Of a DNA stretch of 62,279 nt, positions 1 to 62,279 are shown piece after piece. Numbering within the stretch: the stretch's first letter is position 1; each line of letters begins with the position of its first letter. Below the pieces are notes generated by a model that did no database searches, was not told the origin of the DNA, and saw nothing but the letters and a program-made list of their open reading frames with translations. The translations under genes and the position numbers were made by a program. The stretch comes from a virus: positions 1-62,279 of IMG/VR virus record IMGVR_UViG_3300048774_000008, one strand, 5' to 3'.

Positions 1-473
1 ACCTGCGCATTGTCGGACACCTGCGCATTGTCGGACACCTGCGCATTGTCGGACACCTGCGCATTGCCGAACACCTGCGCATTGTCGGACACCTGCGCAT
101 TGTCGGACACCTGCGCATCGCCGGACACCTGCGCATTGCCGGACACCTGCGCATTGCCGAACACCCACGCATCGCCGGACACCTGCGCATTGCCGGACAC
201 CTGCGCATTGCCGGACACCCACACATCGCCGGACACCTGCGCATTGCCGAACACCTGCGCATTGCCGAACACCTGCGCATTGCCGGACACCTGCGCATTG
301 CCGAACACCCACGCATCGCCGGACACCTGCAAATTTTTCTCGGCTTCGATGTAGCCGCCGAGTTTGCCCGGTAGGACACACAGGCCGATTGCGACCAACG
401 CCCGAATGCGGTACAGCTTCCGTCCGTTCCATTCTTTCGTATCGTTTTCTAACAGTTCATATTTTGCGTTCAT
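1..473 (-). CDS. Hexapeptide-repeat protein, N-terminal part (ORF leaves the window at position 1)
   Basis: ATG at 473-471 preceded by AAGGAG. Protein starts MNAKYELLENDTKEWNGRKLYRIRALVAIG..GGYIEAEKNLQVSGDAW, then 18-nt (6-aa) tandem units VSGNAQ/VFGNAQ/VSDNAQ/VSGDAW. No stop before the window edge. Absent from the ORF track because it is truncated. Confidence 0.7.
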   Translation of the reverse strand, partial: MNAKYELLENDTKEWNGRKLYRIRALVAIGLCVLPGKLGGYIEAEKNLQVSGDAWVFGNAQVSGNAQVFGNAQVFGNAQVSGDVWVSGNAQVSGNAQVSGDAWVFGNAQVSGNAQVSGDAQVSDNAQVSDNAQVFGNAQVSDNAQVSDNAQVSDNAQ

Positions 474-5724: not shown

Positions 5725-6381
5725 TTAATCAATCTGTGGATTGTTGCTGCAAGGAAAACATGTAATTGCTTTTAACCGTTTTAACTCCGCAACCGCCCAT
5801 TTTTTCAACTCGATCAAATCCGCCTTGGAATATTGCTTTTCAGGCTGTGGGCCGTTTATCCGGTCAAACTCTGCCTGCCCGATTTTGGCAATCAGCCGGG
5901 GCGTGTAATCGCCGATATTTCCCGACTTCCAGTTATTGCAAATTGAACAAGATTTGTGTATGTTGGCTAGATCGAAGCGCAAAGCAGGGTTTGATCCGAC
6001 CGACTTGTAATGGCTTGCGTGCCATTGCCCGGACCATGTAGCAGGCTTGTCGCACGATATGCAACCGTCCTCCTTGTCACGCCACCTGACCAGCGAGTTA
6101 ATCGCCGTCTGGGCCTCCCTAGCGTAATCTGACCGGCTTTTCAGAGCATCCTTGCGCTTCGCAGTATCGGCCCTGTCCAGTTTAGCGGCGGCGCGTTCCT
6201 TGCGCTCCCTGTCGCGTTTTGCTACCTCGGCAGCGCATTCTGGCTTGCAGGCTTTATGCGCCATGCTCCGCTTTTCAAATGGCTTACGGCATATTTTGCA
6301 CTTCGATAATTTCGGCTTGCGCACCTTTGCCGTTAGCGCGCTAGGCTTGCGGGATAGCGGAGTTTTGCGGGTGAGCGTCAT
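5725..6381 (-). CDS. ninG: NinG/Rap-family recombination endonuclease
   Basis: Basic N-terminus with CKIC..C..EC, then CISC...H.SHY....NPALRFDL.NIH..C..CN, typical of lambda NinG. Confidence 0.8.
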   Translation of the reverse strand: MTLTRKTPLSRKPSALTAKVRKPKLSKCKICRKPFEKRSMAHKACKPECAAEVAKRDRERKERAAAKLDRADTAKRKDALKSRSDYAREAQTAINSLVRWRDKEDGCISCDKPATWSGQWHASHYKSVGSNPALRFDLANIHKSCSICNNWKSGNIGDYTPRLIAKIGQAEFDRINGPQPEKQYSKADLIELKKWAVAELKRLKAITCFPCSNNPQID

Positions 6382-7178
6382 TTGAATGGCCTATAAACTG
6401 ACGCAATATACCGACTAAGCGGCAACGGGATTTTTGCAATCATGGCGCTGGCGGCTTTGCGGGCGTTTGATTTTGAACCATGCCGCGCCGCACCGTCTTG
6501 AAACCATGCGTAACCTTTGCCGTTTTCTCGTGGCCCGCATATTCCTGGTTGTTTCGTGCCGTTTTCAGCTGCATTCGTCCAGTGTCCTGTAGGTCGGTGC
6601 GGTACGCCTTTGATACTTGATTCCTCAACGCTCGCCGTCTGAAATGATTTGCCGCTGCCATCGAATCGAAAGCCGGGAACCTTGAATGTTTTTGCGATCG
6701 GCATCAACGCCGGCACATCTCCCCACAAATGAAATGAACCATAGTTCCAGCGTGACCGCCCAACCCATTCCTGTGCGCCGCGCACGTTCTCAACGATCAA
6801 CGGGATAAAATGTCCTGCCGCTTCGATAGCTTCGCGCTGGATGCGAAAACAGGCATCGAACAATGCAGTTAATCGCTTCGGGTCATCCTCGCCGGCAAGC
6901 AACTTGCGGCGCTTCTCTTTTGCGAGTGACCACGGCATAGCCATGTAGGAGTATTCTTGACATGGCGGACTCGCGACTATCAGCGCAGCGTCTTTGAATT
7001 GCTTGCCATGAAGCGTTAAAATATCCTGAATCACAAGTTGACCGGGATATTTTTCATCACCATATTGGTGTTGCTCAATGTCGAAACCGACGACATAGTA
7101 ACCTTCGGCAATCAAGCCCTCAGTCCAGCCACCCAAGCCGCAGCACAAATCGATAGCCAATGGTTTTATATCGTCCAT
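6378..7178 (-). CDS. DNA (cytosine-5) methyltransferase
   Basis: Motif I DLCCGLGGW, motif IV PPCQEYS, motif VI ENV. I prefer ATG 7178 (purine-rich SD upstream) over the TTG at 7232 used by the ORF track. Confidence 0.8.
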   Translation of the reverse strand: MDDIKPLAIDLCCGLGGWTEGLIAEGYYVVGFDIEQHQYGDEKYPGQLVIQDILTLHGKQFKDAALIVASPPCQEYSYMAMPWSLAKEKRRKLLAGEDDPKRLTALFDACFRIQREAIEAAGHFIPLIVENVRGAQEWVGRSRWNYGSFHLWGDVPALMPIAKTFKVPGFRFDGSGKSFQTASVEESSIKGVPHRPTGHWTNAAENGTKQPGICGPRENGKGYAWFQDGAARHGSKSNARKAASAMIAKIPLPLSRYIASVYRPFK

Positions 7179-10061: not shown

Positions 10062-10385
10062 ATGAAAATGAAAAAAGTTATTCGCCAAGGTGATGTATCC
10101 CTAATTCAGGTATCGGCAATTCCATCCAATGCCGTCGAAATCAAAACAGAACAAAACCGAGTTGTATTAGCATACGGAGAAGTTACCGGCCATGCCCATG
10201 CGATCTACGAAGATATCGACCAAGTGCGCGTCTGGGCTGACGGCAAGGTGAAATATCTCGAAGTCATGGCGACTGTAATGCTGAGACACGAAGAGCATAC
10301 CCATGCGCTGCTGCCGCCCGGAATTTATAAGTTGCCGGTGCAGGTTGAATACCACCCGGCTGAGTTAAGAATTACAAGAGACTAA
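10062..10385 (+). CDS. Conserved phage hypothetical protein
   Basis: The RQGDV.L..V..IP......VLAYGEVTGHAH.....L.HEEH....LPPG.Y....QVEY motif recurs in phage proteins of unknown function. The alternative start at 10068 has better SD spacing. Confidence 0.6.
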   Translation: MKMKKVIRQGDVSLIQVSAIPSNAVEIKTEQNRVVLAYGEVTGHAHAIYEDIDQVRVWADGKVKYLEVMATVMLRHEEHTHALLPPGIYKLPVQVEYHPAELRITRD

Positions 10386-54777: not shown

Positions 54778-56058
54778 TTAGAATCCATCAGGGCCATTTA
54801 ATCCAATAATTATGGAATACGTAAAACAGTCACTTAAATCGTCAGCGCGCTTTGCCGCGTCCTTGTCGCCAATTCGATAACCAGTAACTTGCGAAAGCAT
54901 ATGATTCCTGCTATGCCCTTTAAATTCCACCGTTTTTTCAAATGCCGGTTGACTGATTTTTACCTCACCACGATAAACGGGACCAGAAGCTCCGATCGCC
55001 CTTCCATCTTTACCGATTGCGGTGATATCGCCCTCTATCGCACGCGCCGGCCATCCCATGCGCAAAGAATGTTGATTGAGCGTGATTCCACTGCCCTTAT
55101 CCTCGATCCATGCGCCAGCAGAACCGAGTCGCGCCTTAGTCAATTTGGCGAAATACTCCAATTGAGTGAACACATTCGGCAACCATGTAATCAATAAATC
55201 AGAATTGATCTGAACAATATCCCAATCCAAAATAACCAATTTGTGCCCGTGATATTTGGAGATTGCACAGTAAATTACTGCCGTACCATCATTACCGGAT
55301 CCGTCTTTCATTGCAGAATCAATAACCGCAAACACATAATCACAACCAATTGGAATCTGTACGCCTTGCCCATTGATTGTTAAACTATCAATAGAGAAAA
55401 ACGCTACTCCAGACCAATCAACGAATTTTGCTAAATATTCTTGTTGGAAAACTAACGGGTGATTATTTAGTCGCTCTTTTTCCAATTCATCAGCAGGCAC
55501 ATACGGATTGCTGCTAGTCGGAGCATAAAATTCCGCGAATCCCAACTCTTTGTTATTGCAACAATTCCAGAAAAAATTTTCAGGATCCTCACCATTTGGC
55601 GTGCTGAATACCCATGCGATCCCGCGCGTCGTCAATAATGTCGGTTTAATGGATTTATTCCATATATCCAGCATTTGACCGTTTTTTGTAAATGCAGCCT
55701 CATCAATCAGGACGACATCATATTCACGTCCTCGGCCAGCCAGTGGGTTATCATCAAGTACCCAAAAATCTAATTTTGATTTTGTTTTGGGCCTCATCCT
55801 TCCGCGCGTACTGTTTATTGTCCCCTTGACTGGCTCAAGTATGTCGCGCAATTCATCGAATGGTTCCGCAAGTTGATCAGATCTTGGCGTGAATACCCCG
55901 ACATTTTCGCCGCGGGATGCAAAATTCGCTGCAATGGAAACCAATAATTTCGTTTTCCCCCATCGGCGACCACATCGTACTACATTAAGTCTTGTGCGAT
56001 TTGCAATTATTTCATCCTGACCAATATGCAAAACCGGCAATTCTAATGATGCCTTCAT
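54778..56058 (-). CDS. terL: Terminase large subunit
   Basis: Walker A CGRRWGKT, Walker B VVLIDEAAF, C-terminal nuclease-like acidic motifs. Confidence 0.85.
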   Translation of the reverse strand: MKASLELPVLHIGQDEIIANRTRLNVVRCGRRWGKTKLLVSIAANFASRGENVGVFTPRSDQLAEPFDELRDILEPVKGTINSTRGRMRPKTKSKLDFWVLDDNPLAGRGREYDVVLIDEAAFTKNGQMLDIWNKSIKPTLLTTRGIAWVFSTPNGEDPENFFWNCCNNKELGFAEFYAPTSSNPYVPADELEKERLNNHPLVFQQEYLAKFVDWSGVAFFSIDSLTINGQGVQIPIGCDYVFAVIDSAMKDGSGNDGTAVIYCAISKYHGHKLVILDWDIVQINSDLLITWLPNVFTQLEYFAKLTKARLGSAGAWIEDKGSGITLNQHSLRMGWPARAIEGDITAIGKDGRAIGASGPVYRGEVKISQPAFEKTVEFKGHSRNHMLSQVTGYRIGDKDAAKRADDLSDCFTYSIIIGLNGPDGF

Positions 56059-56618
56059 TTCCCAATCACAGTGCCGTTGATTGTTATTTCCAATTTCTGA
56101 GGCTCATTATTATCTGAATCTGCCGAAATATTCCATCCTTGCATATCGCTAATCTGTTTTATGGCCTGCAACGGCGAGTGTGTTTTTATTTTTAATCCGT
56201 CTTTTCCGGTAGACAATTCAGATATTGCAGCGATCTTTATTTGATCCTGCTCGACAGAATCTTTGATTGACCAAAGAGATTGTTTTATCAACCTACCGCC
56301 AATATCAACTTCATATGATCCGAATTCGACTAAATCCGATAACGATGTACGGGCAAGCGCCGAAAGACGCTCTAATGCCTCCTCCCGCTTCAATATCGTG
56401 TCTTTAACCGCTATGGAACGCATTAAATCGATATAAGCTTTCACGCTAGGGTTAGCTAGGATTTCAGTTACCCCAGCTCGGATTGCGCTTTCCGAGTTCG
56501 CCTTTCCTTTCGATGCTCTATAAGCATTGGCGGCATTCATGCCCTTTAATGTATTTGTTGCAATTTCTTTTTGCAACGGCGTCAATGCGCTAAATAATTT
56601 TTCCTCTTCGTTTTGCAT
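56055..56618 (-). CDS. terS: Terminase small subunit (Terminase_2/P27-like)
   Basis: LTPLQKEIATNTLKGMNAANAYRASKGK...SAIRAGVTEILANPSVKAYI. Overlaps the terL start. Confidence 0.75.
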   Translation of the reverse strand: MQNEEEKLFSALTPLQKEIATNTLKGMNAANAYRASKGKANSESAIRAGVTEILANPSVKAYIDLMRSIAVKDTILKREEALERLSALARTSLSDLVEFGSYEVDIGGRLIKQSLWSIKDSVEQDQIKIAAISELSTGKDGLKIKTHSPLQAIKQISDMQGWNISADSDNNEPQKLEITINGTVIGK

Positions 56619-56765
56619 TGTTTATGTATCCTGTATTTATTTTAACTATCGAACTCCTGAGATATTTTTGGGAATTATATACATAACTACCTCGGTTAAA
56701 TTTAATTGAAAAACATCTCAAAATGTACTTGACTCCCTCAAATCAGCACTTTCGATCTATTTAAG

Positions 56766-57356
56766 ATGTTCCCCGATCAAGAATCGGCGCGGCTCTATCT
56801 CGAAAAACGCCTTTGGCCTAACGGTTGCCGCTGTCCAGTATGCGGCATTGGCGACCGCGTGACGGCGCGCAAAAATGGTTTCTACCGCTGCAACCAATGT
56901 AGAGAGGATTTCACCGTTCGCACTGGAACGATTTTTGAACGTTCGCACGTTCCTCTACATAAATGGCTTTACGCGATGTACCTGGTCACCACGGCACGTA
57001 AGGGCATTTCATCATTACAACTGAGCAAGGAAATAGACGTTACGCAAAAATCTGCATGGTTCATGCTACAGCGTATTCGTGAAGCCTGTGGCACTGATCC
57101 AACGATTTTAAGTGGAGTTGTCGAAGTCGATGAAACCTACATCGGCGGCAAAGAATCCAGCAAGCACGAATCGAAAAAGCTAAAGGCTGGCCGTGGCGCT
57201 GTCGGCAAGACCGCCGTCATGGGCATGCGTGAGCGCGGCGGTAGAGTCAATGCCGTTGATCTGATTGCAGATAAGATACTGGCATTTAAACCAAAACCAA
57301 AGAGCGCCCCGGCCAAAAAACGTGCGAAAGCGCGTAAGAAACTGGCTAGGGAATGA
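56766..57356 (+). pseudogene. IS1595-family transposase remnant (N-terminal zinc ribbon + HTH, DDE domain truncated)
   Basis: CPVCG....Y.C..C...FTVRTGTIFE.S.VPL.KW..A....T.....ISS.QL......T.KSAWFM..RIR......L.G.VEVDETYIGG is the IS1595 N-region. The ORF ends about 45 aa into the catalytic domain with an unrelated Lys/Ala-rich tail. Confidence 0.65.
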
Positions 57357-57699: not shown

Positions 57700-57711
57700 T
57701 TTTACCCAGAA

Positions 57712-57744
57712 TAAAAAGTCCGGTGCCGGTTATTCACGCACCGG
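57712..57744 (-). terminator. Rho-independent terminator
   Basis: Minus strand: CCGGTGC-11 nt-GCACCGG then ACTTTTTAT, directly upstream of the 109-aa gene. Confidence 0.6.
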
Positions 57745-57787
57745 CTGAAATCCACCGGTTTTACACGATGGAGGAGATTTAAATCGA

Positions 57788-57844
57788 AATTAGAGGAAAA
57801 ACTCTAATTAAATACTTGCGTTGCGCGTTACGATGCCCCATACT
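57788..57844 (+). promoter_or_regulatory. Promoter with upstream inverted-repeat operator for the small-gene operon
   Basis: IR AATTAGAG-6 nt-CTCTAATT (57788-57809). TTGCGT (57816-57821), 17 nt, CATACT (57839-57844). Confidence 0.4.
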
Positions 57845-57882
57845 GAATTCATCAGCAGTACAAACCCAACCGGAGAATGAAA

Positions 57883-58098
57883 ATGAGCACAAATCAAACA
57901 GCAGCATTTAATGCAGGCGTAGAATTTGCAAAATACCTGAACGATAGTCCTAATGCACGTCAAAACTGGAGTCAACTCTCCCGCGCCGACGGGATCCCAG
58001 AGGGAGATTACGCCGAACTAACTCGCGAATTTGGAGAATGCAATTCCGACATGGAGAATCAATTCCGTGCTGGATTCAATAAAACATTATGCAAATAA
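57883..58098 (+). CDS. Small protein, paralog A (71 aa)
   Basis: MSTNQTAAFNAGVEFAKYLNDSPNARQNW..; GGAGA 7 nt upstream of the ATG at 57883. Confidence 0.6.
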   Translation: MSTNQTAAFNAGVEFAKYLNDSPNARQNWSQLSRADGIPEGDYAELTREFGECNSDMENQFRAGFNKTLCK

Positions 58099-58154
58099 AT
58101 AGTTGATCCACCCGACGCCGAATTCACAATTTTTTAAATCAACCGGAGAATAAA

Positions 58155-58409
58155 ATGAAAACTTTCACAAAACGCTATAGTTTAACAATCAATGGTTGCT
58201 CGAATTCATTTGGCTGTGCCGAAATAATAGCCAAACGATTGTGCGCGTGGACTGGCATCTCGTACACCGAGGCACTGGCAAAAGGCAATGCTGACTTCTC
58301 TCGCAAACTCGCGAGAAATGCGATGATGTACGTTCTCGATTTGTATAAAAAACAAAATGATGATCTGCAAATTGAAATTGTGCAGAGTGGTTATATTCCT
58401 AATAAATAA
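58155..58409 (+). CDS. Small protein (84 aa)
   Basis: ORF with the same upstream module, ACAATTTTTTAAATCAACCGGAGAAT. Confidence 0.55.
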   Translation: MKTFTKRYSLTINGCSNSFGCAEIIAKRLCAWTGISYTEALAKGNADFSRKLARNAMMYVLDLYKKQNDDLQIEIVQSGYIPNK

Positions 58410-58455
58410 ACCACCTGGCATGGATACAATTTTTTAAATCAACCGGAGAATGAAA

Positions 58456-58677
58456 ATGAACACGAACACAAATCAAACAGCAGCATTTAATGCAGGCGTA
58501 GAATTTGCAAAATTCCTGAACGATAACCCTAATGAACGTCAAAACTGGGGTCAACTCTCCCGCGAGGACGGAATCCCAGAGGGGGATTACGCCGAACTAA
58601 CTCGCGAATTTGGAGAATGCAATTCCGACATGGAGAATCAATTCCGTGCTGGATTCAATAAAACATTATGCAAATAA
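58456..58677 (+). CDS. Small protein, paralog B (73 aa)
   Basis: About 90 percent identical to paralog A. The last ~110 nt are identical. Confidence 0.6.
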   Translation: MNTNTNQTAAFNAGVEFAKFLNDNPNERQNWGQLSREDGIPEGDYAELTREFGECNSDMENQFRAGFNKTLCK

Positions 58678-58789
58678 ATAGGGAATTATATATTTAATTC
58701 CCTGTGCAAAATAAATCAAAAAACACTTGCAATTGCGCCCATCGGCACAACGCCAACCGCGCCTCGGGATCAGGGGCTGGAGAAATAAA

Positions 58790-59131
58790 ATGCTTACTCA
58801 AGATCAGCGCGATACCTTCAGACTGGCTCTCGCATCGTTCAATGACTATACGGTCAAAAGTGTTGGGGAACTCGATATCGATAACATGTTGTCGGATGAC
58901 CAGATTGTCGAAACACGTGACACGCTAGAAAACTTTTTCAAAGCTCATGGCCGTAAGTTAAATCGACGGACTGGCGAACGGCCAGAAGTGCCATTTGAAC
59001 AGGAAGCCACTTTGCTCGGCGTAATTTACAAATGGGACGACGTTCAAGCGCGCAAGGGCGCACGCCGTGGGACCCTTTATGTGATGGACTTTGGCACTGT
59101 TCGCGCCGTATTTTTCGACGGCGAGGCATGA
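58790..59131 (+). CDS. Small protein (113 aa)
   Basis: ATG 58790 preceded by GGAGAAA. Confidence 0.55.
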   Translation: MLTQDQRDTFRLALASFNDYTVKSVGELDIDNMLSDDQIVETRDTLENFFKAHGRKLNRRTGERPEVPFEQEATLLGVIYKWDDVQARKGARRGTLYVMDFGTVRAVFFDGEA

Positions 59132-59213
59132 GCAACCACCCCGACGGATGCACCCGGCATTTTGGGAGCTTTTTTGCATCAAAATACCGGCCTTCGGGCC
59201 ACAGGAGAAAATC

Positions 59214-59408
59214 ATGTCTCAAACCGCAACCGGCGCATACATCGCCCAAATCATCGATCTAATCGACAAAATCAATACCCTGAAAGCTGCCGCCGAGGAT
59301 CATTTCAACACGCATCCTGACTCAATCAACTGGGGACACGTCGGCACTTTGACCAAAATCAATTCAGATCTGTGCGTTATTATGCAATTTGCAGGGGTAA
59401 AAGTATGA
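59214..59408 (+). CDS. Small protein (64 aa)
   Basis: ATG 59214 preceded by AGGAGAAA. Confidence 0.5.
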   Translation: MSQTATGAYIAQIIDLIDKINTLKAAAEDHFNTHPDSINWGHVGTLTKINSDLCVIMQFAGVKV

Positions 59409-59563
59409 CTGCCAAATCAGGTAAGCAGCGCGCCCAAGAATTGCGTAATCGCCGCATCGACGCTGGCCTGGTCAGGCTCGATATTTACGCGCCACGCAGT
59501 CTGCACGCTGCCATCCGCCAATATGCTAAATCTTTAATTTCCCTACAGAAAGTCGAAAAATGA
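59405..59563 (+). CDS. Small basic protein (52 aa), possible RHH-type regulator
   Basis: MTAKSGKQRAQELRNRRIDAGLVRLDIYAPRSLHAAIRQYAKSL, with a strand-helix-helix-like pattern. ATGA-coupled on both sides. Confidence 0.4.
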   Translation: MTAKSGKQRAQELRNRRIDAGLVRLDIYAPRSLHAAIRQYAKSLISLQKVEK

Positions 59564-59703
59564 ACCTGCCATCATCGATTAAACTGTCTCAAACCCTCCG
59601 GCGCCAGATGGGCGATTTTAACTATGTCCGGTATTGCCGCAATCTCGGCGTTGATTTTGAGACCGTCTACACGCTCATGTTCGGCAGGATACCGCGCATT
59701 TAA
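59560..59703 (+). CDS. Small protein (47 aa)
   Basis: MNLPSSIKLSQTLRRQMGDFNYVRYCRNLGVDFETVYTLMFGRIPRI. Its last 20 nt belong to the repeated leader-like element of the CRISPR region. Below the ORF-track cutoff. Confidence 0.35.
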   Translation: MNLPSSIKLSQTLRRQMGDFNYVRYCRNLGVDFETVYTLMFGRIPRI

Positions 59704-59716
59704 AAGCATGCTTTTT

Positions 59717-59849
59717 CGTGGGGAACACAGGCTCAAACTCAACCGATGGGCGGCCCATCCGGTTCATCCCCACGCTCGTGGGGAACACGCCTGGTGCTAC
59801 GCTCTGCACCGACGAACACGCGGTTCATCCCCACGCTCGTGGGGAACAC
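59717..59849 (-). CRISPR. Mini-CRISPR array B: 2 full type I-E-like repeats, 2 spacers, truncated terminal repeat
   Basis: Minus sense: GTGTTCCCCACGAGCGTGGGGATGAACCG at 59849-59821 and 59788-59760. Spacers are 59820-59789 (32 nt) and 59759-59729 (31 nt). The terminal copy keeps only GTGTTCCCCACG (59728-59717). Confidence 0.75.
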
Positions 59850-59887
59850 CTGGTGCAGGATACCGCGCATTTAAAAGCATGCTTTTT

Positions 59888-59959
59888 CGTGGGGAACACA
59901 GGCTCAAACTCAACCGATGGGCGGCCCATCCGGTTCATCCCCACGCTCGTGGGGAACAC
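59888..59959 (-). CRISPR. Mini-CRISPR array A: 1 full type I-E-like repeat, 1 spacer, truncated terminal repeat
   Basis: Repeat 59959-59931. Spacer 59930-59900 is identical to the distal spacer of array B. Truncated repeat 59899-59888. Confidence 0.75.
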
Positions 59960-60169
59960 CTGGTGCAGGATACCGCGCATTTAAAAGCATGCTTTTATAA
60001 ATTCGATGGCTAATCCGCTAACAGTGATTCGTGTTGCTCACCTTCACGCGGCGGCATACTCTATGGTGCCACATCCATGTGGCATTGCGGTTTATCAATC
60101 CTACGATGGGCTATCCGCAGATTTTTCGAGTACGGCTGTCCAGCCATCGAAATCTGTGGTGCATAATGC

Positions 60170-60192
60170 AAAAAGCCCCGTTCTCGCGGGGC
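60170..60192 (-). terminator. Rho-independent terminator
   Basis: Minus strand: GCCCCG-CGAGAA-CGGGGC followed by TTTTTG. Confidence 0.75.
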
Positions 60193-60494
60193 ATCCTTTG
60201 TCTACTGTTTGCCCATCGTGGGCGCTCTGGCGGTATTGGTTCCGAGTACAGCGTCTCGGGGAGTTTGTCTTGCAACATAGCAGCTCGGCCGGCTTTGTAA
60301 TCCGGCTTCATACGCCTGTTAGTTATCCTGCTCTGTATCATGGTCGGCTACGGTCCGGTCGCTCCTGCGCCAATTTTGCCGGTACTACCATATTTTCGAG
60401 CGAACGAAGCTATCAAGCTTCGGGGCTTCAGGTAAGCCGCTGCCCTGCTTTCGCTCAAATTACCTACAAGAACATCACTACAGATCAAGCAGGT
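60170..60494 (-). ncRNA. Candidate ~325-nt structured RNA (late-promoter leader transcript, function unknown)
   Basis: Bounded by a near-consensus promoter and an intrinsic terminator. No credible minus-strand ORF. Many local stems, e.g. GAGCGAA..TTCGCTC enclosing CGAAGC-TTGATA-GCTTCG, GCCGG-9 nt-CCGGC, CCGAG-8 nt-CTCGG, GCCC-ACGAT-GGGC. Confidence 0.45.
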
Positions 60495-60500
60495 TATGCC

Positions 60501-60529
60501 ATGCTACATGGACAATTTAGGCGTGTCAA
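60501..60529 (-). promoter_or_regulatory. Strong sigma70-type promoter (candidate late promoter, PR-prime analogue)
   Basis: Minus strand: TTGACA (60529-60524), 17 nt, TAGCAT (60506-60501), about 120 nt downstream of the Q-like stop. Confidence 0.6.
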
Positions 60530-60540
60530 TACATTTGTCG

Positions 60541-60655
60541 TTGACATCCTCCCCGCCCTAAAGGACGGGGATTCCTACAGCTAGCAGCGCATGTCCGCGC
60601 TATCCATCCTCCCCCTGAACGGGGAGGATTTTCGCGCAAAGCCCTGTTAAAAATC
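60541..60655 (+). repeat. 115-bp perfect direct repeat, copy 1 (three hairpins, the last a plus-strand intrinsic terminator)
   Basis: Identical to 61242-61356. Hairpins are TCCCCG..CGGGGA, AGCGC..GCGCT, and ATCCTCCCC-CTGAAC-GGGGAGGAT followed by TTTT. Confidence 0.95.
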
Positions 60656-61228
60656 CATATCATTTGATAGTTTTTTCATGGAAACATCTGCGCACCGTGC
60701 CGCCATCGCGTTTAGCACCTCAATCATGTCTAAAACGTAATCGCGCACTTCTTTTCTGCACAGTATCGGCTTCGTGCCGGTGCCGCGGCAGGCGGGGCAT
60801 GGTTCATCAGAGAGTATTGGCGTTCCAGCTAATGCTAGGTGCGTTACGCCGGTCGCTAGGTTCATCTTTCCGGTGCAAATAGGACATTTATCGTTTAGCC
60901 AGTGCTTTAGAGAGAGATCGGCGATTTTTCCGGTATCCGTTTCTTTAGGCCATTTTCGACCCGCAGACTTGAATAATACGATTCCCGTCCATTTTACAAG
61001 CAACGGATTGTAACTGGTCGCGTCGTTTGCGTATTTCACGCGAAATAACAAATTACCGATCCCCGCGCCTTCCGCAAATGTTGGGATGATGGGCTTATCG
61101 TTAATCCAGCCGGATGCGCCGCTGCCAATGGCTACTGCTGCCAATGGCTCGGTATTGTGGTGAAATTCATCATCGCGCAATTCTGTCGCCTGCACCGATC
61201 TTGCATACCGATCAACTATTCCCATCAC
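60647..61228 (-). CDS. Lambda-Q-like antiterminator candidate (zinc-finger protein)
   Basis: CPICTGK...22 aa...CPACRGTG parallels the CRDCHGTG...CGRCKGVG pair of lambda Q. Similar size (193 aa). Position between the nin-type genes and the late promoter/late genes. Confidence 0.4.
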   Translation of the reverse strand: MMGIVDRYARSVQATELRDDEFHHNTEPLAAVAIGSGASGWINDKPIIPTFAEGAGIGNLLFRVKYANDATSYNPLLVKWTGIVLFKSAGRKWPKETDTGKIADLSLKHWLNDKCPICTGKMNLATGVTHLALAGTPILSDEPCPACRGTGTKPILCRKEVRDYVLDMIEVLNAMAARCADVSMKKLSNDMDF

Positions 61229-61241
61229 CCCCCCCTTTTTT

Positions 61242-61356
61242 TTGACATCCTCCCCGCCCTAAAGGACGGGGATTCCTACAGCTAGCAGCGCATGTCCGCG
61301 CTATCCATCCTCCCCCTGAACGGGGAGGATTTTCGCGCAAAGCCCTGTTAAAAATC
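61242..61356 (+). repeat. 115-bp perfect direct repeat, copy 2
   Basis: Identical to 60541-60655. Preceded by a C8T8 homopolymer junction (61229-61244). Confidence 0.95.
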
Positions 61357-61374
61357 GATCATGCTTGCGCTTGC

Positions 61375-61795: not shown

Positions 61796-62279
61796 TCAAT
61801 CCTCAATCAGTTCTGGCATATCAAACCAGTGCGCAATCAGGTTGCAGATTCCAAGGTACGATTTTCCGATCTTGGAATCTGCGCCGTGCTTCTCATTGAC
61901 GGCAGCGCGGAATTTAATGAGGTCGCCCTGAAAGCATCCTCGCTTCAGTTCTAGTCCGTCTTTTGTCCGATAAACAGTCAGCGTGCCGTTTTTGCTGCCG
62001 ACTCCTGAATAGATCTGAATGTCGGCACGTTTTTGCACCTGCGCATTGCCGGACACCCACACATCGCCGGACACCCACACATCGCCGGACACCTGCGCAT
62101 TGCCGAACACCTGCGCATTGCCGAACACCTGCGCATTGCCGGACACCTGCGCATTGTCGGACACCTGCGCATTGCCGAACACCCACACATCGCCGGACAC
62201 CTGCGCATTGCCGAACACCTGCGCATTGCCGAACACCTGCGCATTGCCGGACACCTGCGCATTGTCGGACACCTGCGCA
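61796..62279 (-). CDS. Hexapeptide-repeat protein, C-terminal part (ORF enters from the window end)
   Basis: The frame is open to the last base of the window. Repeats VSGNAQ/VFGNAQ/VSGDVW, then a globular tail ..RADIQIYSGVGSKNGTLTVYRTKDGLELKRGCFQGDLIKFRAAVNEKHG.. The GTG start in the ORF track is probably internal. Confidence 0.7.
   Translation of the reverse strand, partial: AQVSDNAQVSGNAQVFGNAQVFGNAQVSGDVWVFGNAQVSDNAQVSGNAQVFGNAQVFGNAQVSGDVWVSGDVWVSGNAQVQKRADIQIYSGVGSKNGTLTVYRTKDGLELKRGCFQGDLIKFRAAVNEKHGADSKIGKSYLGICNLIAHWFDMPELIED

Follow-up and report, generated by a model that had tools for sequence, protein, structure and literature searches.

In Pseudomonas citronellolis, the acrIC7-acrIC6-aca10 operon (Leon 2021, PMC7913775; Lee 2022, PMC9410881), in which small acidic genes precede a gene for a helix-turn-helix (HTH) regulator, is repressed by that regulator, Aca10 (Protein Data Bank (PDB) entry 7XI5). 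Residues Q22, Q37 and R44 of Aca10 matter for DNA binding, and the operon is driven by a promoter of the form TTGCAA-N16-TATTCT with a palindromic operator that reaches from the spacer into the -10 box (PMC9410881). Aca14 is an Aca protein of the ribbon-helix-helix (RHH) type, and Aca proteins can control neighbouring operons (preprint 10.64898/2026.07.27.740549). In the acr-aca1 operons of Mu-like Pseudomonas phages (JBD30), small cargo genes likewise lie upstream of a terminal HTH gene. Anti-CRISPR (Acr) proteins have been discovered through the finding of one cargo gene beside several kinds of aca gene, or of cargo swapped in front of a conserved one. Here we describe a cluster of seven small open reading frames (ORF1 to ORF7) and their upstream promoter region (57788-59703) in IMG/VR virus record IMGVR_UViG_3300048774_000008, positions 1 to 62,279, the whole of which we call the window. 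We favour, with moderate confidence, the interpretation that this cluster is an acr-aca-type accessory island of the phage, antisense to the Q-dependent late transcript and built of two layers, one of them a cassette that has partly decayed.

Results

An Aca10-type regulator and operator in sibling contigs

Eight short contigs of the same phage lineage, most of them ~1 kb long, were recovered by exact-protein look-ups and are referred to as siblings; in the stretches that they share with the window, identity is 94-100%. In three siblings (L126, L128 and L131), a 70-aa gene lies between ORF4 (58790-59131, plus strand; 113 aa, acidic) and ORF5, and its start codon overlaps the stop codon of ORF4 (ATGA). 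Its product carries the Pfam domain HTH_31 and matches Aca10 (E=2.6e-17), with 32 of 55 residues identical (58%), including the DNA-binding residues Q22, Q37 and R44 and residue E52 of the dimer interface. L130 and L132 carry this aca10 gene with a variant N-terminus and no clear start codon, and in both the cargo upstream of it has been swapped for an 83-aa acidic protein with an isoelectric point (pI) of 4.4.

The sibling promoter upstream of ORF4 (P2, TT(G/A)CAA-16-TATACT) contains, in its spacer and -10 box, the palindrome ATACGCCCATTGGGCGCAA, at the same place as the published operator. In L128 this palindrome agrees with the published minimal 19-bp Aca10 site ATACGCTCATTGAGCGTAT at 15 of 19 positions (chance expectation for that contig, 0.012), and a single position separates the operator of L130 from that of L128. 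Moreover, the Ralstonia phage Hyacinthe holds an 18/19 match to the Aca10 site inside a TTGACA/TATTAT promoter, which heads a four-gene small-protein operon ending in an Aca10-like gene; the Aca10 module is therefore not restricted to Pseudomonas.

The siblings thus resemble the P. citronellolis operon in their Aca10-type terminal HTH gene, their promoter and palindrome, and the small acidic genes upstream of aca10. They differ from it in a host that is not Pseudomonas (their type of CRISPR repeat is common in Betaproteobacteria) and in the IS1595-type inverted repeats that bound the unit. A preliminary description of the window, made from its letters alone, had likened the cluster to acr-aca operons and had looked for the Aca-like regulator among its last small proteins. 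The siblings bear out the first idea in part, having an Aca10 homolog directly after ORF4 and an Aca10-type operator inside the ORF4 promoter, but the window retains just a frameshifted remnant and half an operator, and ORF6 is no more than a candidate Aca protein.

The ORF4-aca10 unit as an IS1595-derived cassette

In the siblings, ORF4 and aca10 form a 708-bp cassette bounded by 22-bp terminal inverted repeats (TIRs; GGGAATTATATATTTAA(T/C)TCCC) and flanked by AATAAATA and AAAAAATA, with a target duplication that agrees at 7 of 8 positions. L129 keeps the empty site GCGAATAAATAAACCACC, and its ORF3 runs straight into ORF5. A 1509-bp element in L001, a high-GC contig from an unrelated phage, shares the 12-nt TIR tips and shows a perfect 8-bp duplication of its target (TTTTCTTG); inside this element, a homolog of ORF4 (56% identical) is followed by a full-length 306-aa transposase of the IS1595 family. 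No such transposase (DDE_Tnp_IS1595) is present inside the ORF4 cassette of the siblings or the window, so that the cassette would be non-autonomous. Judged by its sequence, the cassette is a transposase-less, cargo-carrying derivative of IS1595.

A further, decayed copy of this family lies on the plus strand of the window at 56670-57356, with a degenerate left TIR (GGGAATTATATACATAAC..., 56670-56692) and no recognised right end. Its internally deleted transposase gene (56766-57356, plus strand; partial Pfam PF12760 and PF12762), 1.3 kb from the cassette, shares 71% nucleotide identity with the transposase gene of L001. Siguier and colleagues are said to have described, in 2009, IS1595-family insertion sequences with passenger genes as 'transporter IS'. 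The elements reported here share with these the TIRs, the 8-bp target duplication and the zinc-ribbon DDE_Tnp_IS1595 transposase, and in L001 the ORF4 homolog indeed lies within the element's ends. They differ in that the sibling cassette, without transposase, resembles a miniature inverted-repeat transposable element and carries acr-aca-type cargo, and in that the copies in the window are decayed. Our literature search returned no paper linking IS1595 elements to anti-CRISPR cargo.

Decay of the Aca10 unit in the window

Alignment of the window with the siblings revealed three deletions. The first removed 20 nt between 58739 and 58740, among them the right half of the operator and the TATACT of the -10 box. 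What is left of P2 is its -35 box, TTGCAA, and the left half of the operator, TTGCGCC (58727-58745, plus strand). The second (145 nt between 59141 and 59142) lies inside aca10 and shifts its frame, and the third (51 nt between 59185 and 59186) took the 3' end of aca10, the right TIR and the target duplication. The frameshifted remnant of aca10 (59128-59185, plus strand) still overlaps the ORF4 stop codon with its start (ATGA), as in the siblings, and the left TIR GGGAATTATATATTTAATTCCC (58680-58703), itself palindromic, is the sole TIR of the cassette to survive in the window. A plus-strand hairpin at 59153-59166, considered as a terminator, was reinterpreted as former aca10 coding sequence. 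Neither an intact aca10 nor an intact in-promoter Aca10 operator is left in the window, where no other site lies within four mismatches of the published Aca10 site. Over 58652-59713, the independent contig L125 shows 100% identity to the window and therefore carries the same deletions.

ORF4 and its ribosome-binding site (RBS) are intact in the window. Since P2 no longer works, transcription of ORF4 depends entirely on read-through from P1, the promoter upstream of ORF1, and because P1 alone is left, the block now looks like one seven-gene operon. It had been taken for exactly that, but the comparison with the siblings shows a composite of at least two layers, in which the aca10 remnant is an eighth gene. 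Stanley et al. 2019 are reported to have found that loss of Aca1 is deleterious unless the acr promoter is weakened as well, and the joint loss of repressor and promoter seen here would fit that case.

ORF4 family and its partners in other phages

A search of 5.8 billion proteins placed ORF4 in a family of 56 clusters, all metagenomic and unnamed; by tblastn, no homolog was found in phages or plasmids. The AlphaFold2 (AF2) model built with the family alignment had a mean predicted local distance difference test score (pLDDT) of 94.5. In Foldseek searches this model found no solved structure in the PDB (best E=1.2, TM-scores <=0.34) and, in BFVD, one uncharacterised phage protein only. A match of the family profile to 'Pizza' beta-propeller proteins was discarded as an artefact of summed short motifs, and weak matches to a methyladenine glycosylase and a methyltransferase were below threshold. 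The 5' untranslated regions of ORF4 homologs showed no conserved RNA structure. Comparison with known Acr families, a check suggested by the preliminary description, yielded no match by sequence for any of the ORFs and none by fold for ORF4; for ORF4 it covered curated families and solved structures, with the AcrIC6 and AcrIC7 sequences outside it.

ORF4 homologs elsewhere were found next to small partner proteins (62-77 aa) of different kinds. In L133, a promoter with a palindrome precedes the ORF4 homolog, and the HTH gene after this homolog encodes a protein with a weak match to Aca10; a second promoter with the same palindrome (TTGCAT-AACGCCCATTTGGGCG-TATATT) drives genes for a 77-aa and a 139-aa protein of unknown function. 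An Aca2_YdiL-domain gene lies ~5 kb downstream (regions 5800-6631 and 10146-10339), and L133 may hold a larger anti-defence island. In L136-138, the ORF4 homolog is overlapped by a gene for an Aca1-like HTH protein (PDB 7VJN). This terminal position downstream of small cargo resembles the acr-aca1 operons, with the difference that the arrangement occurs in other phages and not in the window, and that the match is modest (E=7e-6). In L140 and L141, the overlapping gene encodes a small basic protein that is RHH-like by eye, with no RHH match, and in L146 and L147 the ORF4 homologs are followed by other small proteins at a prophage edge. The ORF4 homologs at prophage edges adjoin integrases. Intact ORF4 genes without such a partner were seen in the window, L125, L134, L135 and L001.

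Uncorrected ratios of nonsynonymous to synonymous polymorphism (pN/pS) were 0.12-0.36 for ORF4 against five distant homologs, which indicates that ORF4 is under purifying selection. Of the cluster, ORF4 is the best candidate for an anti-CRISPR or anti-defence gene.

Small proteins and promoter of the surrounding operon

All seven plus-strand ORFs were confirmed at the positions and sizes first given for them: a GGAG-type RBS precedes ORF1 to ORF6 (six of seven), and the ORF7 start overlaps the ORF6 stop codon (ATGA). ORF1 (57883-58098, plus strand; 71 aa, acidic, pI 4.7) and ORF3 (58456-58677, plus strand; 73 aa, acidic) are paralogs with 94% nucleotide identity, and ORF1 is lineage-restricted. 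The pair has two homolog clusters only, and one ORF1 homolog lies divergent from the TerS gene of another phage, behind a TTGCAT-16-TATACT promoter. For ORF2 (58155-58409, plus strand; 84 aa, basic), two real homologs were found among 1.84 billion representative proteins, after a further candidate (P0059, 529 aa) had been rejected as low-complexity junk. ORF5 (59214-59408, plus strand; 64 aa) is the only one of the seven to match a PHROG (14596, function unknown), and its homologs lie among early and replication genes in phages with a lytic life cycle (Pamexvirus, Xiamenvirus and Janthinobacterium phages). By sequence, none of the seven has a match in Pfam, NCBIfam, PADLOC or the solved structures, and IMG/VR scans for ORF5 and ORF6 were empty. 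As evidence that the ORFs are genes, besides the ORF1-ORF3 paralogy and the ratios for ORF4, the uncorrected pN/pS of ORF1 against its single distant homolog (L139) was 0.32; the values for ORF5, for ORF6 and for ORF1 versus ORF3 are based on few differences, and ORF7 has zero differences.

ORF1, ORF2, ORF3 and the L001 homolog of ORF4 are preceded by a shared translation-initiation context (CCAACCGGAGAA(T/A)...), and a post-stop linker TAAATAAACCACCTGGCAT follows ORF2 in the window and ORF3 in L129 (initiation and linker contexts at 58099-58155, 58410-58455 and 57860-57882 of the window and at L001:5985-6000). These recurring contexts suggest shuffling of cassettes at conserved junctions.

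Both proteins at the end of the cluster, ORF6 (59405-59563, plus strand; 52 aa, pI 11.0) and ORF7 (59560-59703, plus strand; 47 aa, pI 10.0), are very basic and probably bind nucleic acid; ORF7 looks HTH-like when read by eye. The earlier characterisation of ORF6 as a basic, RHH-like protein holds for its charge, but no family, RHH or other, matched it at E<=1. The single-sequence AF2 model of the ORF6 monomer (pLDDT 78) has two helices and no strand, which is still compatible with a dimeric RHH protein, and found no match in Foldseek. An apparent likeness between ORF6 and the small terminal proteins in L140 and L146 found no support in BLASTP.

The P1 promoter proposed for the cluster (TTGCGT-17-CATACT; 57816-57844, plus strand) is indeed present; it agrees with the sigma-70 consensus at 7 of 12 positions, however, and was not picked by our promoter scan. 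P1 is a weaker homolog of P2 without the Aca10 palindrome; the two have in common ACTTGC at the -35 box and ATACTGAATTCATC at and beyond the -10 box. The candidate operator AATTAGAG-N6-CTCTAATT (57788-57809) is, as described, a perfect 8-bp inverted repeat, and it has no other close match in the window, where chance predicts 0.23 at up to three mismatches. It ends 6 nt upstream of the P1 -35 box, however, and does not lie over the -10 box or any other part of the promoter.

Mini-CRISPR arrays next to the cassette

The cluster converges on two minus-strand mini-CRISPR arrays (59716-59964) with three full and two truncated type I-E repeats (GTGTTCCCCACGAGCGTGGGGATGAACCG) and two spacers, A in two copies and B in a single one. 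Arrays of Betaproteobacteria, and those of some Gammaproteobacteria, commonly contain this repeat. Neither spacer has a protospacer in IMG/VR or in the window, and IMG/VR scans for the repeat and for the 'leader-like' element beside it were empty. The latter, a 32-nt element, is present in three copies (59684-59715, 59855-59886 and 59965-59996), the first of which includes the last 20 nt of ORF7 (59684-59703). The ORF7 3' end thus lies in the repeated element, as had been pointed out, but three siblings argue against a dedicated leader. The 249-nt array segment is missing from L128, L130 and L131, where the 32-nt element occurs just once, so that the element is a duplicated flank, namely the ORF7 3' end. 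The mini-arrays are an insertion polymorphism among the siblings.

The promoter and aca10 are intact in the three array-less siblings. In the window, the arrays are present and the cassette is decayed. L129, which lacks the cassette, carries a different array (715-930) with three full repeats and other spacers; this array adjoins a gene fragment with a GSAN motif that looks phospholipase D-like by eye. L126 is a partial exception, having arrays together with an intact aca10, with the promoter outside the contig. A pattern in which the cassette is intact where arrays are absent and decayed or missing where they are present is suggestive, in a sample that is small and phylogenetically non-independent.

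Position of the cluster in the phage genome

The window represents a lambdoid temperate phage of ~62 kb, with Erf, Gam and integrase genes on its plus strand and genes for a P22 Cro-like protein, NinB, NinG, primase and helicase on its minus strand. No near-identical DNA was found in GenBank phages. Both ends of the window (1-120 and 62080-62279) consist of an identical 18-nt tandem repeat, part of a gene whose protein (PHROG 7964) is made of GNAQV(F/S) hexapeptide repeats, so that the window is probably a circular assembly opened within this gene.

The cluster is located between a weak Q-like zinc-finger gene (60647-61228, minus strand; PHROG 6060, E=0.002) and the terminase genes, which comprise TerS (56055-56618, minus strand; assigned from position) and TerL (minus strand; 51% identity to a Yersinia phage TerL), with structural genes further along. 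Downstream of the Q-like gene lie a promoter-like site with 10 of 12 consensus positions (60529-60501, minus strand) and a strong terminator-like hairpin (60192-60175, minus strand). From this layout, the late transcript must run leftward from ~60.5 kb to the terminase genes. It must cross the mini-arrays and then run antisense over the seven ORFs, which agrees with the placement of the cluster, between the late promoter region and the terminase genes and against the late direction, in the preliminary description.

Several further features surround this region. The ~530 nt between the promoter-like site and the mini-arrays (60006-60540), which include the terminator-like hairpin (60175-60192), contain a sole, implausible ORF, are 99.5% conserved in the siblings and have no Rfam match; this segment could be a pR'/tR'-style late leader RNA. 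Two copies of a 118-nt hairpin-rich element, 99% identical (60541-60658 and 61242-61359), flank the Q-like gene. In L128, an IS200/IS605 element encoding TnpA and TnpB (L128:2108-3602) is inserted at ~60601 within one of these copies, and L130 lacks ~100 nt at the site of a 118-nt copy; the copies may be IS605-related palindromic elements. On the other side of the cluster, a minus-strand hairpin (CCGGTGC...GCACCGG followed by TTTTTATT; 57708-57746), just upstream of a 109-aa minus-strand gene, could by eye be read as a terminator for antisense transcripts exiting the cluster. It overlaps a weak Rfam match to a toxic small RNA of Betaproteobacteria (E=0.14, far under threshold), and the Rfam scan of 57.3-62.3 kb gave no credible match. 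In the structural-gene region, the int-alpA RNA motif RF02996 (48561-48627, minus strand) matches with 46.3 bits, above the Rfam gathering threshold, in a 122-nt gap separating two ORFs.

Discussion

The two layers of the proposed accessory island would differ in age and origin. The older layer would be a P1-driven operon of the lineage-restricted small proteins ORF1, ORF3, ORF2 and ORF5, ending in the probable nucleic-acid-binding proteins ORF6 and ORF7. Into it, between ORF3 and ORF5, a non-autonomous IS1595-derived cassette would have inserted, bringing a strong promoter with an Aca10-type palindrome covering its spacer and -10 box, the gene for ORF4 or the 83-aa protein, and then aca10. 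In an intact unit, the promoter would fire upon DNA entry and the cargo protein would neutralise host defence, until accumulating Aca10 shuts the promoter off. In the window the unit is a fossil of this arrangement, from which deletions have taken the -10 box along with half of its operator, most of aca10 and the transposon's right end. What the sequences show directly is the gene content, the homology to Aca10, the likeness of the operators, the deletions, the TIRs with the target duplication and the variety of regulators after ORF4 homologs; an anti-defence role, the system at which it would be aimed and when the genes would be expressed are inferences.

Several points weigh against this interpretation. 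None of the ORFs matches an Acr or other anti-defence family in Pfam, PHROGs, NCBIfam, PADLOC or, by sequence or profile, the PDB, and the functional reading is argued from the company of Aca proteins and from nothing else. Cargo other than Acr proteins also comes under Aca-type regulators (preprint 10.64898/2026.07.27.740549), and some ORF4 homologs stand alone or beside a transposase, with no regulator. In the window, both the aca gene and its operator are destroyed, so the locus may be inactive. A phage with host-type I-E mini-arrays would also seem to lose by inhibiting type I-E systems. Finally, the comparison draws on eight sibling contigs only.

Among the alternatives, the one that survives best, although we consider it unlikely, is that the ORFs are ordinary morons, early regulatory genes or transposon passengers with no role in counter-defence, and that Aca10 is a mere repressor of a strong promoter. 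The early and replication genes among which ORF5 homologs lie in lytic phages, the ORF1 homolog divergent from TerS, the integrases beside ORF4 homologs at prophage edges (a classic moron position) and the lack of any match to a known anti-defence family would all suit such genes. However, ORF4 is repeatedly paired with proteins that, among solved structures, match Aca10 and Aca1 best, and the operator shows conservation with the Aca10 site defined by experiment. The cargo proteins are acidic, and they have been exchanged in front of a conserved aca gene, a signature that has served to discover Acr proteins.

Distinctly unlikely, in our assessment, is a single seven-gene acr operon read from P1, with ORF6 (as an RHH protein) or ORF7 as the Aca protein, autoregulating through the inverted repeat at 57788-57809. 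That repeat is perfect, without a close second in the window, and adjoins P1, which is now the sole promoter remaining. ORF6 and ORF7 are very basic and stand at the end of the cluster, and the direct passage from ORF3 into ORF5-7 in L129 indicates that P1 probably drove ORF5-7 ancestrally. An Aca protein of the RHH type also exists in Aca14 (preprint 10.64898/2026.07.27.740549), to which ORF6 can be likened in being small, basic and near the operon end, with an inverted repeat near the promoter. This likeness is one of description; ORF6 has no detectable RHH signature, and its candidate inverted repeat does not cover the -10 box as in the Aca14 case. Besides the helical model without a strand, the ~24 residues that follow the putative strand of ORF6 are, in our judgement, short for two helices. 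The inverted repeat stops short of the -35 box, whereas characterised Aca operators overlap the promoter, and the cluster has been shown to be a composite.

A reverse-order toxin-antitoxin pair of ORF4 and the downstream HTH or RHH protein (HigBA- or MqsRA-like), borne by the transposon and stabilising it or the prophage, is improbable. In its favour are the arrangement, in which the gene for a protein of ~110 aa precedes one for a small DNA-binding protein and its stop codon overlaps the next start codon, the partners that mix and match (HTH proteins versus an RHH-like one), and a weak, sub-threshold similarity of the Aca10-like protein to the HTH domains of MqsA and HigA. The reading is disfavoured because the modelled fold of ORF4 matches no known toxin in Foldseek (RelE, ParE, HigB or MqsR) and ORF4 persists intact without a partner, while the partners, which match Aca10 and Aca1 best, leave at their size little beyond the DNA-binding domain for toxin neutralisation.

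Returning to the acr-aca-type accessory island, we propose as a doubtful extension that the acr-aca unit hops between phages as non-autonomous IS1595 cargo, and that its gain and decay beside phage-borne arrays reflect a trade-off between inhibiting and exploiting the CRISPR-Cas system of the host. The position of the cassette beside the mini-arrays makes such a trade-off, to inhibit or to hijack, directly testable, and a cassette bounded by TIRs suggests a route by which acr-aca units could move between unrelated phages. The siblings offer a rare population snapshot, in which the cassette is seen inserted, swapped, stripped of its regulator and promoter, and lost. If ORF4 is an inhibitor, it would found a new anti-CRISPR or anti-defence family of 56 clusters, so far encountered in metagenomes only and with a fold unmatched by solved structures, and the Aca10 module, with nearly the same operator, would extend beyond Pseudomonas to phages of Betaproteobacteria-type hosts.

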